Assembly (NCBI GenBank): GCA_902539295.1
Contig: CACBIM010000007.1
Coordinates: 31,837-95,836, forward strand
Source of the DNA: an uncultured SAR116 cluster alpha proteobacterium
GTDB lineage: Bacteria > Pseudomonadota > Alphaproteobacteria > Puniceispirillales > GCA-002684695
Length of the DNA stretch: 64,000 bases
Reading direction: 5' to 3'
In this document: positions 42,180 to 50,642 of the stretch, piece after piece
Position numbering within the stretch: the first letter of the stretch is position 1
Layout of the letters: each line of letters opens with the position of its first letter
Translations under genes and position numbers: made by a program
The notes under the pieces: generated by a model
What the model saw: the letters and a program-made list of their open reading frames with translations, nothing else
Database searches by the model: none
What the model was told of the DNA's origin: nothing

Positions 42180-44931
42180 TCAACGACTTATCCTTGTTGA
42201 TGGTTCAGGATACATTTTCAGGGCTTTTTATGCTCTTCCTCCTATGTCTCGAGAGGATGGTACTCCAGTTAATGCTGTTTTTGGATTTACCTCAATGCTT
42301 CTTAAACTATCAGAAGATATGGAAGGAGAAAATATACTTGTTGTCTTTGACGCTGCGAGAACAACCTTTAGAAATGAAATTTATAAAGAATATAAAGCAA
42401 ACAGATCTGAACCGCCTGAAGAATTAGTACCTCAATTTGATTTGATTAAAAAGGCAACTACAGCAATAGGATTAAAATCTCTTGAAGTTGAAAATTATGA
42501 GGCTGATGACATAATTGCAACTTATGTAAAAATAGCAAAAAAAGAAAATATAGAAACATTGGTCATTTCTTCTGATAAAGATTTGATGCAATTAATTCAA
42601 GATCATGTGTCACTATATGATCCAATGAAAAATATTAAAATTGGACCAGAGGCAGTATTTGAAAAATTTGGAGTTTCGCCTGATAAGGTAATAGATGTTC
42701 AAGCATTAGCTGGAGATTCTTCGGATAATGTTCCAGGTGTTCCTGGTATAGGTGTTAAGACTGCATCTCAATTAATTAATGAATACGGATCTCTCGAAAA
42801 ACTTCTAGATAATGCGAGTTCAATCAAGCAAGAGAAAAGAAGAGAAAGCCTTATTAATAATGCTGAACTTGCAATAGTATCAAAAAAATTAGTTTCACTG
42901 TTTTCAGATGTACCAATTCCGTATAAAATAAGTGATTTAAAATGGACGCCAAGGAACGATGATAATTTATTGGCTTTTTTGAAAGAAAACAATTTTAAGA
43001 GGCTTGAAAATAGATACTTTTATCCGGAACAAGCAGGTAATTCTCAGCCCGAAAGTAAAAATATAGAGCAAAATTATAATCTCATAACCAAATTATCTGA
43101 TTTACAAAATTTAATTGATGAAAGCATTAAATGTGGTGTTATAGCAGTTGACACGGAAACTGATTCTATTAATGCAGTGCAAGCTAATTTAGTTGGTGTT
43201 TCAATTTCTACCAAACCAGGAACTGCTTACTATATTCCTTTGAGGCATATAGAAAATTCAGTACCTTTATTGATCGATGAAAAGTTGGACCAAAAGGATA
43301 AAATTAAACAAATAAATTTTGATAGTGCAACCAACTTGTTAAAAAAAGTATTAGAAGACCCCTCAATAATTAAAGTAGGTCATAATATTAAGTATGATAT
43401 ATTGGTATTTTCTCAGAAGAGAAATGGAAGTATCAATTTGTATCCAGTACATGATACAATGTGTATGTCATATGTAAATGACGCTAATAGGTACAGTCAT
43501 AAACTTGATAGTTTGGCAAAGGATTTTTTTGATCATGAAACAATAAAATATGATGATGTTTGTGGGAAAGGGTCCAAACAGGTCACATTTGATAAAATTC
43601 ATCCAAATGATGCGCTAAATTACGCAGCCGAAGATGCAGACTTCTGCTTAAGAATATTTACGTCCTTAAAAGAAGAGCTTTTTATTTCAAAGTTAAATTC
43701 AGTATATGAAAGGATAGAGAGACCTCTGATAAATGTAATTGCTAATATGGAGAAAGAGGGCATTTTAATTGATAAAGGCAAATTAAACGCTTTATCAATT
43801 GAATTTCAGGATAAATTAACCCTAATTCAAAAGAAAATTTATGAATTATGTGGTGAGGAATTTAATATTGCCTCACCAAAGCAGTTAGGAGAAATTTTAT
43901 TTGAGAAATTAAATTTACCTCAAGATAAAAAATCAAAAACTGGAAATTATAGCACTTCTATTTCAGTTTTGGAGGAGCTTTCAACTAAAGGGTTTGAGAT
44001 TGCAGATTTAATTATTGAATGGAGAACCCTTTCAAAATTAAAGTCAACTTATACTGATGCTCTTCAAGAAAGTATTAATAAACAAACAAAAAGAGTACAT
44101 ACATCTTACTCAATGGCTTCGGCTTCTACAGGAAGGCTTGCTTCAACAAACCCAAATCTTCAGAACATCCCTATTAGAACTTCTGATGGAAGAAGAATTA
44201 GGGAAGCTTTTATTGCAAGAGACGGATATAAATTAATATCTGCTGATTATAGTCAAATTGAACTCAGGTTGATTGCGCATGCTGCAAATGAAACAGAAAT
44301 GATAAAAGCATTTAATGAAAATGTAGATATTCATTCTCAAACTGCTTCAAAGGTTTTTGGAATTCCTATTGAAGATCTTGATTCTGAAATTAGAAGAAGC
44401 GCTAAAGCTATTAATTTTGGAATAATTTACGGGATCTCAGCTTTTGGACTATCAAAACAACTTTCATGTTCTCAAAGTGAAGCTAAGAACTTCATAGAGT
44501 CATATTTTGATCAATTTCCAAAAATTAAAAGTTATATGGATGCAATGATAGAAAATGCTAAAATGAATGGCTATGTTGAGACATTTTTTGGAAGAAGAAT
44601 ACCAATAAAAGGCATTAATTCTAAAAACTTTCAGGAAAGATCATTTGCTGAGAGACAATCTATAAACGCTCCTATTCAAGGTAGTGCAGCAGATATTATT
44701 AAGCGAGCCATGATAAAAATACACAATGTTTTTCAAGGAAAAAACATTGAATCAAAAATGTTACTTCAGGTGCACGATGAATTAGTTTTTGAATGTCCAA
44801 AAGATGAGATAAAAGCTGTTTCACATTTGATTCAAAAAGAGATGGAACAGGCAAATTTACCTTTATTCCCATTAAATATACCAATAGTAGTTGATTTTGG
44901 TGAAGCAGATAATTGGTCTGAAGCCCATTAA
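42172..44931 (+). CDS. polA: DNA polymerase I
   Basis: 5'-nuclease N-terminus, 3'-5' exo motif IAVDTETDS, and pol motifs DYSQIELR, RRSAKAINFGIIYG and QVHDELVFE. 919 aa. Confidence 0.98.
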   Translation: MGSQRLILVDGSGYIFRAFYALPPMSREDGTPVNAVFGFTSMLLKLSEDMEGENILVVFDAARTTFRNEIYKEYKANRSEPPEELVPQFDLIKKATTAIGLKSLEVENYEADDIIATYVKIAKKENIETLVISSDKDLMQLIQDHVSLYDPMKNIKIGPEAVFEKFGVSPDKVIDVQALAGDSSDNVPGVPGIGVKTASQLINEYGSLEKLLDNASSIKQEKRRESLINNAELAIVSKKLVSLFSDVPIPYKISDLKWTPRNDDNLLAFLKENNFKRLENRYFYPEQAGNSQPESKNIEQNYNLITKLSDLQNLIDESIKCGVIAVDTETDSINAVQANLVGVSISTKPGTAYYIPLRHIENSVPLLIDEKLDQKDKIKQINFDSATNLLKKVLEDPSIIKVGHNIKYDILVFSQKRNGSINLYPVHDTMCMSYVNDANRYSHKLDSLAKDFFDHETIKYDDVCGKGSKQVTFDKIHPNDALNYAAEDADFCLRIFTSLKEELFISKLNSVYERIERPLINVIANMEKEGILIDKGKLNALSIEFQDKLTLIQKKIYELCGEEFNIASPKQLGEILFEKLNLPQDKKSKTGNYSTSISVLEELSTKGFEIADLIIEWRTLSKLKSTYTDALQESINKQTKRVHTSYSMASASTGRLASTNPNLQNIPIRTSDGRRIREAFIARDGYKLISADYSQIELRLIAHAANETEMIKAFNENVDIHSQTASKVFGIPIEDLDSEIRRSAKAINFGIIYGISAFGLSKQLSCSQSEAKNFIESYFDQFPKIKSYMDAMIENAKMNGYVETFFGRRIPIKGINSKNFQERSFAERQSINAPIQGSAADIIKRAMIKIHNVFQGKNIESKMLLQVHDELVFECPKDEIKAVSHLIQKEMEQANLPLFPLNIPIVVDFGEADNWSEAH

Positions 44932-45022: not shown

Positions 45023-45709
45023 ATGGCTAATAAAATCGCCTTAGTAGACGATGACCAAAATATTTTAACATCAGTCTCCTTAGCATTAGAAGCAGAAGGT
45101 TTTAGTGTCGATAAATATTTAGATGGTGAGCAAGGCTTAAATGGTATTAATAGACGGCCACCAGATTTATTAGTCTTAGATATCAAAATGCCAAGATTAG
45201 ATGGCATGGAAGTTCTTGAAAGATTGAGAAAAACATCAAATTTGCCCGTAATTTTCTTAACTAGTAAAGATGACGAAGTTGATGAGGCGCTTGGATTGCG
45301 AATTGGTGCTGATGATTATATTAAAAAGCCTTTTTCCCAAAGGTTACTAATTGAAAGAATTAAAGCCTTACTAAGAAGGGTCAATAACAGCAATGAAACT
45401 GATCCAGATGCAATTCTTGCTCGTGGAGATCTTACAATGGATACATCTAGGCACTCATCCAAATGGAAAGGTGATGATGTCAGGCTTACTGTAACTGAGT
45501 TTTTAATTTTGAAAGATCTTGCTCAAAGAACAGGCATTGTTAAAACCAGAGACCAATTAATGGATGCAGCTTACGGTGAAACAATATATGTTGATGATAG
45601 AACTATAGATTCTCATATAAAAAGATTAAGGAAAAAATTTCGCTTAATAGATAAAAAATTTGATCAAATTGAAACACTTTATGGTGTAGGATACAGGTAT
45701 CGTGAATAA
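45023..45709 (+). CDS. chvI: OmpR-family response regulator ChvI
   Basis: [69 protein letters not shown] closely tracks alphaproteobacterial ChvI/BvrR. Strong RBS (AGGAGGG). Confidence 0.92.
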
Positions 45710-47368: not shown

Positions 47369-48769
47369 ATGTCATCTAAAGTAGATTATGTAGTAGCTGA
47401 TATTTCATTAGCTGATTGGGGTAGAAAAGAATTAGACATAGCAGAGACTGAAATGCCTGGGCTAATGTCATTAAGAGAAGAATATTCTAAATCAAAAGAT
47501 TTAAAGGGAGCGAGAATAGCAGGATGTCTTCATATGACTATTCAAACTGCAGTTTTAATCGAAACTCTGAAAGAATTAGGTGCTGATATCAGATGGGCTA
47601 GTTGTAATATATTCTCAACCCAGGATCATGCTGCAGCTGTAATTGCTAAGGCTGGTATTCCTGTGTTTGCAAAAAAAGGTGAAACTGTACAAGAATATTG
47701 GGAATATGTAGATAAGATCTTTGACTGGAGTGATGGTGGATATCCAAATATGATCTTGGATGATGGTGGTGATGCAACTTCTTACATTATTTTTGGTGCT
47801 AAAATGGAAGCTGGAGATGAGGTTCTTAAAAATCCAGAGAATGAAGAAGAAGAAGCAATGAAAGCCCAAATTTTAAAGAGAATGGCTTCCAATCCAGGTT
47901 GGTTTACTGAGGTTAAAAATAGCCTTAAAGGAGTTTCTGAAGAAACTACAACAGGGGTTTTAAGATTACATCAAATGTCAGAGAAAGGTGACCTTCCATT
48001 TCCAGCGATAAACGTTAATGATAGTGTAACAAAATCTAAATTTGATAATGTTTATGGATGTAGAGAAAGCCTTGTAGATAGTATAAAAAGAGCTACCGAC
48101 GTTATGTTAGCTGGTAAAGTTGCAGTGGTTTGTGGTTTTGGAGATGTTGGTAAAGGTTCTGCAGCTTCCCTTAGACAAGGCGGTGCAAGAGTAATGGTTA
48201 CTGAAATAGATCCAATTTGTGCACTACAAGCTTCCATGGAAGGTTATGAAGTGGTTACAATGGAACAGGCTGCATCAAAAGCAGATATTTTTGTAACAGC
48301 AACAGGTAATAAAGACGTAATTACTGTTGATCATATGAGAGATATGAAAGATAGAGCGGTGGTTTGCAATATTGGTCACTTTGATTCTGAAATTCAAATA
48401 AGTGGTTTAAATAATATGGTTTGGGACGAAATCAAACCACAGGTTGATGAAGTAAAGTTTCCAGATGGAAAAAAAATTATTATGCTTGCTAAAGGAAGAT
48501 TAGTTAACCTCGGGTGTGGCACAGGCCATCCAAGCTTTGTTATGTCGGCTTCTTTTACAAATCAGGTTCTGGCTCAAATGGAAATTTTTAATAATACTTC
48601 AGCTTATGAAAACAAAGTTTATACTTTGCCAAGAAAATTAGATGAGAAAGTTGCTGAGCTTCATTTGGCTAAAGTTGGAGCAACGCTTACAAAACTTAGT
48701 GATGAGCAAGCTAGCTATATTGGAATTTCCTCTGACAGTGCCTTTAAATCTGATGAATATAGATATTAA
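47369..48769 (+). CDS. ahcY: adenosylhomocysteinase
   Basis: 466 aa with [16 protein letters not shown].., NAD-binding GFGDVGKG and the conserved C-terminal tail ending ..YRY. Confidence 0.97.
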
Positions 48770-49201
48770 AAGAGATAAAAAATAAAAGATTACTACAATC
48801 TTGTTGGATTAAAGCTCTTAGCAAAAAAAATATCAATAAGCTGTACAGAAGGGGATGTAATAACCCTTTCTGGACCTCTTGGTGTTGGAAAAACTACATT
48901 TGCTAAATATCTCATACAGTATTTAGTTGATGAGAATATTGAAGTTACTTCTCCAACATATAATATTATCCAATCCTATAGAAGATTTGATGAAATCGAG
49001 ATTCTACATATGGATTTCTACCGATTAAATGACAAAACAAATATTTATGATTTGGATATCATCGAGTCATTTGAAAATGCTATATCTATTATTGAATGGC
49101 CGGAAAAATTAATTGAAATTATACCAGAAAAAAGGTTGAATATTAAATTAAGTTTTGTTGATGATGATGATGATCTTCGTAAGATAATATTAGCTGACTA
49201 G
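48753..49201 (+). CDS. tsaE: tRNA t6A37 biosynthesis ATPase TsaE; start unresolved (no in-frame canonical start before the P-loop)
   Basis: Frame open from 48779 encodes ..[46 protein letters not shown], the YjeE/TsaE hallmarks. The first in-frame ATG (49010) is downstream of the Walker A. The ATG at 48753 is in the adjacent frame. Confidence 0.8.
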
Positions 49202-49202
49202 T

Positions 49203-50642
49203 ATGATTAATAATAATTCAAATGAAACATCTAGATACGTTATCTATGATTTTGAAACTACAGGTAGAAATTCAAACTGGGATCAAATTATTCAAGTTGG
49301 TGCAATTTTAGTAGACGATAAACTAACTGAATTAGATCGACTTGAGATGAGGTCATCACTAAAACCTGGATTAATTCCTGAACCAGGCGCCCTTTTGGTT
49401 AATAATACTTCGCCAGAAATGTTGTCCAAATCAAACTTATCTCATTATTCCATGATTAAGGAGTTATCAAAAAAATTTACTGAATGGTCACCTGCTATTT
49501 TTATGGGTTACAATTCTATTGATTTTGATGAGGAATTCTTTCGTAAAACATTATTCAAAACACTATATAACCCGTATTTTACACAACTAAATGGAAACAA
49601 ACGATGTGATATCCTTAATATGGTTCGTAGCGCATCTATTTTCCTTCCTGAGACTATAAAATACGAAAAAAATAATAAAGGTAATCCAATTCTAAAACTT
49701 GATCAGATTGCTCCTTTAAATAATATTAATCATGAAGCTCACGATGCGTTAGGAGATGTCCTTGCTACAAATGAGATAGCAAAAATTTTGCGTCTAAAGG
49801 CTAAGAATATCTGGAATTCTGCCTTAATCAGTTCAACGAGATCTGAGGTTAACGCAAAGATCAAAAATGAACTTTTATTTTGTTTCAGCGAATTTATTTA
49901 TGGTAAAACCAAACCCTTTTTAGTCTCTTTTGTTTGCGAACACCCTGTTTTTAAGTGGCCCCAGTGTTTTGACCTATCAAAAGACCCAAAAGAATATTTT
50001 AATATGTCAAAAAATGAATTAAGTATTGAAATTAAAAAATCACCAAAAGTTATCAGGACAATTAAAGATAACAAAAATCCTATAATAATGGATTACAATG
50101 ATTATTTAAAAAATAGTGAATTTGTTGAATTTAGTGAAGATGAATATATAAAAAGAGCAAAAAATTTGCAGGAAAATAATTTATTTCGTTCAACAATTTT
50201 GCATATCCTTCAAGAGGAATTTGATAAAAATAATAGTTTTGATTCTCAAGAGGAAATTTTAGCTGAGGAAAGTCTATATAAAGGTGGTTTCTTTTCAAAC
50301 GCTGATAAACAGTTAATGGACAAATTTCATAAATCTGACTGGTCGGAAAAACTTAAAATATGTGATGATTTTGATGATGAAAGATTATTTTACTTTGGAA
50401 TGAGGCTTATATATGAAGAACAGCCTTCTATTCTTCCAAAAGAAATTTTTAATAATATTCATTCATCAATAGCTAATCAAGTACTGAGTATGAATAATGA
50501 AAAGTGGTATACTATTCCGAAAGCTTATAAAGATTCAGATGATTTAAAAGTTAAATATGATAATGAAAATAACAAAGAAATATTGGAAAAACTTAGAAAA
50601 TTTGATTTACTAATCGACGATATACAGAGAAATTTTCAGTAA
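49203..50642 (+). CDS. sbcB: exodeoxyribonuclease I
   Basis: DEDDh motifs YDFETTG, GYNSIDFDEEF and HEAHDALGDV, collinear with E. coli ExoI including the long C-terminal domains. Confidence 0.88.
   Translation: MINNNSNETSRYVIYDFETTGRNSNWDQIIQVGAILVDDKLTELDRLEMRSSLKPGLIPEPGALLVNNTSPEMLSKSNLSHYSMIKELSKKFTEWSPAIFMGYNSIDFDEEFFRKTLFKTLYNPYFTQLNGNKRCDILNMVRSASIFLPETIKYEKNNKGNPILKLDQIAPLNNINHEAHDALGDVLATNEIAKILRLKAKNIWNSALISSTRSEVNAKIKNELLFCFSEFIYGKTKPFLVSFVCEHPVFKWPQCFDLSKDPKEYFNMSKNELSIEIKKSPKVIRTIKDNKNPIIMDYNDYLKNSEFVEFSEDEYIKRAKNLQENNLFRSTILHILQEEFDKNNSFDSQEEILAEESLYKGGFFSNADKQLMDKFHKSDWSEKLKICDDFDDERLFYFGMRLIYEEQPSILPKEIFNNIHSSIANQVLSMNNEKWYTIPKAYKDSDDLKVKYDNENNKEILEKLRKFDLLIDDIQRNFQ

Follow-up and report, generated by a model that had tools for sequence, protein, structure and literature searches.

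A tsaE gene with a probable near-cognate AUA start behind ahcY in a marine SAR116 genome

The ahcY–tsaE junction and its product

The window analysed here is a stretch of 64,000 nucleotides on contig 7 of the genome of an uncultured alphaproteobacterium of the SAR116 cluster. This genome (G000 below) is a draft of 68 contigs and 2.16 Mb with 32% G+C and is 88% complete. The following features lie around the junction between ahcY and tsaE, all of them on the plus strand and numbered from the first letter of the window:

47369..48769, plus: ahcY (S-adenosylhomocysteine hydrolase), from the open reading frame list; Pfam AdoHcyase at E 4.5e-142; stop TAA at 48767-69
48753..48785, plus: short open reading frame in another frame, ATG to TAA, overlapping the ahcY 3' end; homologue of the tsaE start of a sister lineage, disconnected here
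48770..48774, plus: Shine-Dalgarno-like AAGAG, read from the sequence, 7 nt 5' of the ATA at 48782
48777..48782, plus: run of six A's; its last base opens the ATA and the others belong to the A-rich spacer; not conserved as an unbroken run
48782..48784, plus: proposed tsaE start ATA (near-cognate AUA), from the comparison of relatives
48782..49201, plus: tsaE coding sequence as proposed, 139 amino acids and stop TAG, based on Pfam TsaE, structure matches and dN/dS
48872..48895, plus: Walker A motif (P-loop) GPLGVGKT, from the translation
49010..49201, plus: open reading frame from the first canonical ATG, 63 amino acids, C-terminal tsaE fragment, from the open reading frame list
49203..50642, plus: exonuclease I-like gene (Pfam RNase_T and Exonuc_X-T_C), starting 1 nt past the tsaE stop in the same operon

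The TsaE frame is also the frame of ahcY. A second TAA closes it at 48776-78, and it reopens at 48779 with AAA ATA AAA GAT TAC TAC AAT (KIKDYYN...), after which a translation scan up to 49010 finds no ATG, GTG or TTG. The reading frames thus agree with a preliminary description of this DNA, according to which the TsaE frame is open only from 48779 and holds no canonical start before 49010. The same description had called the open reading frame at 49010..49201 a mere C-terminal fragment, and this is correct given that its ATG lies downstream of the Walker A motif. Also present as described are the six A's at 48777-48782 and, in the adjacent frame, the ATG at 48753, whose frame overlaps the ahcY 3' end and stops past the run at TAA 48783-85. 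The ATA at 48782 is the second codon of the open TsaE frame and the only AUG-like codon between the in-frame stop at 48776-78 and the conserved TsaE domain. Counted from this codon, tsaE follows ahcY at +12 nt and the exonuclease gene follows tsaE at +1 nt. No terminator or promoter-like site was found at the junctions of the three genes, an Rfam search of the ahcY–tsaE junction gave no match, and RNA folding predicts the tsaE initiation region to be unpaired. A readthrough fusion of AhcY and TsaE was considered and rejected: two stops intervene in G000, and the genes lie in different frames in the related genomes G002 and G005.

TsaE (YjeE) is the ATPase subunit of the t6A threonylcarbamoyl-transfer complex, and tsaE is an essential tRNA-modification gene. 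The open frame matches PF02367 (TsaE) at E 1.1e-32 with a score of 113.1 bits, the curated cut-off being 26.6, and residues 13-126 are aligned to profile positions 9-120. Matches to the solved TsaE structures 5np9, 6n9a and 1htw have E values from 1e-13 to 1e-16; they begin at query residue 10-12, corresponding to chain residue 14-19, and hence within the N-terminus that starts at the ATA. The Walker A pattern G-x-x-G-x-GK[ST] is found as GPLGVGKT, and a start at the ATA places 30 residues ahead of it, compared with 29 in the TsaE of Pelagibacter (MQQITEKDL...). The N-terminal peptide KIKDYYNL.. is conserved among relatives, and about 15 tsaE sequences were found to contain no extra stops or frameshifts. 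Among the lineages that lack a canonical start, pairwise dN/dS of tsaE amounts to 0.13-0.31 with dS up to 0.65, calculated over the whole frame with the N-terminal 30 codons included. These values mean that the gene has long been maintained in working order although it has no canonical start. TsaD is encoded in G000 as well, so the t6A pathway is in use.

Start-less tsaE in relatives and the history of the junction

A canonical start before the P-loop is missing in all six genus genomes that carry tsaE (G000 and five others), and likewise in nine further metagenome and single-cell contigs (L085-L092 and L094). The position of the ATA at 48782 is occupied by ATA in G000, G001, G002, G005, G006, G007 and L085-L091, and by ATT in L092 and L094; it lies 12-14 nt past the ahcY stop across the start-less relatives (12 nt in G000). 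The junction ...GATATTAAAAGAGATAAAAAATAAAAGATTAC... is identical in G000, G001, L085 (JGI 3300020405), L086 (a GOS sample) and L088 (a Tara run). Elsewhere the run of A's varies at unchanged length, reading AAAAGA in the single-cell genome G007 and GAAAAA in L087, L089-L092 and L094; in G006 it is CAAAAA. Other parts of the junction vary as well. The ATG at 48753 is replaced by ACG in L087 (single-cell genome GCA_902535325.1) and in the Tara contigs L089 and L090, and by ATC in G006, in which the run is only A5. The stop after the run is replaced by TTA in L092 and L094, and G002 and G005 contain TTG and A6 in the same frame relation as the ATG at 48753 and its A6. One low-coverage, error-rich contig (L095) was left out of the comparison.

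Between 48776 and 48784 the substitutions found are TAA to TGA, AAA to AAG and ATA to ATT, all of them silent in the TsaE frame. The change from AAA to AAG, located 5' of the proposed start, could hint that this codon is read, though three sites are too few for such a conclusion. The ATA/ATT variation would be equally expected of a plain internal isoleucine codon. Moreover, ATA makes up 35% of the isoleucine codons in G000, so an in-frame ATA is not rare by itself.

The purine-rich, Shine-Dalgarno-like block located 7 nt 5' of the ATA is AAGAG in the G000 group and in G006, GAGGA in G005 and GGGGA in G002. As a Shine-Dalgarno sequence AAGAG-N7 is weak in G000, whereas GAGGA-N7 and GGGGA-N7 are good, as is the GGAG-N7 of L036 and L039 (see below). 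G000 has the normal anti-Shine-Dalgarno sequence CCUCC, with a genome-wide GGAG-to-ATG spacing of 5-9 nt. Nonetheless, only 8% of its ATG genes have a full GGAG, and Shine-Dalgarno evidence therefore weighs little in this organism.

Two unrelated low-G+C marine alphaproteobacterial metagenome-assembled genomes, L036 (PTLN01000001, MarineAlpha2_Bin1) and L039 (PBKD01000014, SP279), also carry tsaE without a canonical start, here as GGAG-N7-ATA and without any A run. AUA-started tsaE may thus recur in several lineages. In both assemblies an out-of-frame ATG stands just before the Shine-Dalgarno sequence and overlaps it (ATGGAG). In four proteins from short metagenome contigs (P0004, P0006, P0008 and P0010), the TsaE body of the genus is preceded by an N-terminus that is Pelagibacter-like or of unrelated sequence; the two parts meet at the conserved P-loop (GVGKTTFA) or shortly before it, and these proteins are probably assembly chimeras.

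Alignment of ahcY–tsaE junctions from related genomes had been proposed in the preliminary description. It yields an ordinary in-frame ATG in the sister-lineage contigs L079-L084, and variants lacking the run or the ATG elsewhere. L079-L084 carry the protein P0025, which is 60% identical to the TsaE of G000, and read ATG AGT ATA GAT ATT AAA GAG ATT AAA AAT AAA GAT TAC in a single frame, translated as MSIDIKEIKNKDYY. At the site of 48782 this lineage, with its canonical ATG, has AAT and not ATA. Compared with it, G000 has two single-A insertions (ATTAAA-A-GAG and AATAAA-A-GAT), which put the ATG at 48753 out of frame and bring the ATA into frame. The use of this ATG as a tsaE start, as considered earlier, is therefore real in the sister lineage, where the frame is continuous, but in G000 the codon is disconnected from the gene. 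A more distant member (L096) has a TTG overlapping the ahcY stop as tsaE start. Taken as a history, these junctions suggest that the lineage of G000 lost its canonical start when single-A insertions in an A-rich junction cut off the ATG and framed the ATA. Start codons have turned over within one genus: at this junction tsaE has an ATG that overlaps ahcY, a TTG that overlaps the stop of ahcY or, as proposed for G000, a near-cognate ATA, and single-A indels in an A-rich tract link these forms.

Possible origins of the TsaE N-terminus

The reading that we favour, with a probability of roughly 0.8, is that tsaE is intact and functional and that its translation begins at the near-cognate AUA at 48782-84, with neither slippage nor an artefact involved. 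It relies on sequence comparison. In the preliminary description an ATA start was only the third option; it now ranks first, as an in-frame ATA or ATT is kept in every start-less variant. The codon lies 12 nt past the ahcY stop on the same mRNA, and its product would be a protein of 139 amino acids with 30 residues ahead of the P-loop. A weak Shine-Dalgarno-like AAGAG 7 nt upstream and an unstructured A-rich spacer would assist initiation, the A6 run being merely part of this spacer. In addition, ribosomes terminating on the well-expressed ahcY may account for part of the initiation (termination-reinitiation). The weak codon would presumably keep the amount of TsaE small, this being a regulatory ATPase of low abundance, and might be tolerated for that reason. 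Among the 29 tRNAs that aragorn detects in this 88% complete genome are a normal initiator (CAU), an elongator Met tRNA and a CAU tRNA of the Ile2 type, one of each, and none has a UAU anticodon. A dedicated initiator tRNA for AUA was rejected on these grounds, even though its absence is not proven by 29 tRNAs from an incomplete genome. With only the ordinary initiator at hand, AUA would be read by tRNA-fMet (anticodon CAU) with a mismatch at the third position.

Near-cognate starts belong to the standard bacterial code table. In E. coli, initiation at AUA, AUU, AUC and CUG reaches about 1-2% of that at AUG, and infC and pcnB are named as the only confirmed cases in that species (Hecht et al., 10.1101/063800). 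Huber et al. (2023, PMC10666635) show that reinitiation persists in part when stop and start are about 13-14 nt apart.

The preliminary description had instead emphasized the A run, either as a site of slippage or as a miscalled homopolymer. According to the former idea, translation would start at the ATG at 48753 and enter the TsaE frame by a programmed -1 frameshift (slipping of the P-site tRNA-Lys on the A6 at the TAA) or by transcriptional slippage to A7. The required arrangement of ATG, A6 and stop is indeed present in G000, G001, L085, L086 and L088, G002 and G005 hold TTG and A6 in a like frame relation, the homologue of the ATG is a real start in the sister lineage, and a one-base offset across an A10 is conserved in five of six genus genomes at chvG, 3 kb upstream. 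Still, each element is missing in one or another start-less relative: the run is broken in G007 (AAA AGA TAA) at 97% protein identity and with unchanged frames, the ATG is ACG in L087, L089 and L090 and ATC in G006 (with A5 only), the stop after the run is lost in L092 and L094, and L036 and L039 have no canonical start and no A run at all. The only candidate for a slippery sequence of the dnaX type is T AAA AAA, which apart from the break in G007 is shortened to A5 in several relatives, and the replacements of the ATG show that there is no conserved zero-frame open reading frame with a start of its own. Neither is there a long conserved poly(A) tract. The run of six A's, which is reduced to A4 in G007 and to A5 in relatives, falls below the tracts of about nine or more that are useful for transcriptional slippage, as known from dnaX and from endosymbionts. 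No Shine-Dalgarno sequence precedes the ATG at 48753, itself inside ahcY, and no stimulatory structure follows (the predicted fold of 48783-48860 has -7.7 kcal/mol, with z = +0.40 relative to shuffled sequences). Poly(A) slippage from this ATG is thereby contradicted as a general explanation, and we consider it unlikely for the locus. A frame that needs one more A at a short run does not, taken alone, point to slippage. There is a slim chance that in G000, G001, L085, L086 and L088 a minor, N-terminally extended TsaE is made beside the AUA-started form by a tRNA-Lys P-site slip at a 'shifty stop'. If so, it might be argued, together with the A10 offset of chvG, that slippage on A runs sets the dose of low-abundance proteins throughout the lineage.

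An error of sequencing or assembly, with a true A7 (or A5) and an ordinary ATG-started gene, might be suspected in a draft of 68 contigs, the more so as G000 has at least one private homopolymer difference, in an ABC permease (T8, against T7 in G001, G007, G003 and G005). A database protein of 145 amino acids (P0003, MLKEIKIKDYFNL...) would also fit an A5 variant with an ATG; it is a protein record only, with no DNA on record, and hints at yet another start variant. Against this, the identical A6 junction occurs in four other independent assemblies (G001, L085, L086 and L088), and two single-cell genomes and several Tara contigs carry the site at equal length but with bases substituted within the run. 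The length is fixed even where the run is only 4-5, as in G007 with its internal G, so a homopolymer miscall cannot explain the junction. The under-calling at 48777-48782 that had been suspected is therefore contradicted, and the chance of an artefact is close to negligible. It might further be supposed that tsaE is not made at full length, being either a decaying pseudogene or truncated from the ATA at 48830, the ATA at 48836 or the ATG at 49010: gene callers do choose internal starts (92-114 amino acids for the database products) and the open reading frame in the window has 63 amino acids. This is very improbable in view of the purifying dN/dS over the whole frame and its N-terminal 30 codons, the conserved KIKDYYNL.. 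peptide, the lack of further stops and frameshifts in about 15 sequences and the t6A pathway indicated by TsaD; moreover, a protein begun at 49010 or further downstream would lack the P-loop.

The description of chvG is correct as to the sequence, but the signature that it had been said to share with tsaE does not hold. At chvG the body of the gene is open from 45713, and no canonical start follows until 45887. A GTG at 45702 overlaps the chvI stop and lies one base out of the chvG frame; between it and the body are an A8 (45711-18) and an A10 (45722-31). The one-base offset with A10 is found in G000, G007, G002, G005 and G006, only G004 being in frame. At chvG both the A10 and the offset are thus conserved, while the run at tsaE is short and not conserved. 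The missing N-terminus of chvG shows a weak match to Pfam Sensor_TM1 from profile position 6, at 22 bits and hence below the cut-off of 26.6. A genome-wide scan for shifts at homopolymers, suggested along with this signature, returned besides chvG only the ABC permease, with rough counts owing to a dicodon score that separates antisense open reading frames poorly. This permease, of the BMP family and located outside the window (C1, about 44050-44110), is split by T8 at about 44089 in G000 only; in G001, G007, G003 and G005 T7 gives a continuous frame of 334-376 amino acids. The T8 reflects a frameshift mutation private to G000 or else a homopolymer error in its assembly.

Near-cognate starts elsewhere, annotation and known systems

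The whole G000 draft was scanned for long frames with good scores whose opening region holds no canonical start. These are the genes found, with contig and position:

C22:6197: infC, GGAG-N7-ATA, genome scan
C13:25430: betA-like GMC oxidoreductase, AAGGAG-N7-ATA AAT ACT TTT GAT TAC, giving MNTFDYIIIGAGSAG, genome scan
C3:2244: lipB, AGGA-N7-ATA, genome scan
C17:10485, minus: dctQ-like gene, GGAG-N6-ATT, genome scan
C30:13268: era, GAGAG-N7-ATT, overlapping the rnc stop, genome scan
C1:62153, minus: birA, no ATG, GTG or TTG before the conserved N-terminus, an ATG of another frame nearby

The GGAG-N7-ATA of infC is kept in all seven genomes (7/7), and that of the betA-like gene is kept in relatives. 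In G003 an in-frame TAA directly precedes the ATA of the betA-like gene, which leaves no other choice of start. A YjbH-like gene (..TYGVPGIIDMPTAG.., C15:42880-43050) likewise has no canonical start before its conserved N-terminus in G000 and in G007 (locus L113). The T10 upstream of C15:42942 in G000 belongs to a hairpin terminator (TCCAGGGAAATA..TATTTTCCCTGGA-T10) as its U-tract, and was for this reason rejected as a frame-shifting homopolymer.

For annotation the consequences are practical. Gene callers in the protein database shorten start-less tsaE to 92-114 amino acids. Across this whole marine genus standard gene finders cut this essential gene to a fragment of 63-114 amino acids without the P-loop, which concerns dozens of database entries. 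Consequently, calls of t6A completeness and of the pathway in these metagenome-assembled genomes will be wrong unless ATA and ATT starts are allowed. Apart from annotation, start-codon turnover and the points of method, a near-cognate start of tsaE is ordinary and of a known kind.

Frameshifting by -1 of the dnaX type takes place on A AAA AAG, and poly(A) transcriptional slippage is known from insect endosymbionts. These systems, and the A10 of chvG, resemble tsaE in that a run of A's lies between the frame of a start and a gene body in the -1 frame. They differ in that the run at tsaE is short and not conserved, the upstream start is not conserved either, and a stimulatory structure is absent.

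The natural AUU starts of infC (IF3) and pcnB in E. coli come closer, these being, like tsaE, conserved genes without AUG, GUG or UUG. In this genus infC itself starts at AUA. In both cases an AUH codon stands at normal Shine-Dalgarno spacing (for tsaE, from a putative Shine-Dalgarno sequence), and initiation is weak (1-2% of AUG; for tsaE by analogy). In infC, however, the weak codon senses IF3 in an autoregulatory loop, and no such logic is known or shown for tsaE. Furthermore, the Shine-Dalgarno-like sequence of tsaE is weak (AAGAG), and the highly conserved gene ahead of tsaE ends 12 nt before the proposed start codon. The packing of ahcY, tsaE and the exonuclease gene at +12 and +1 nt is reminiscent of coupling by termination-reinitiation (PMC10666635), which is putative here. 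In L036 and L039, whose tsaE has a strong GGAG and no co-directional gene immediately ahead of it, such coupling is not required.
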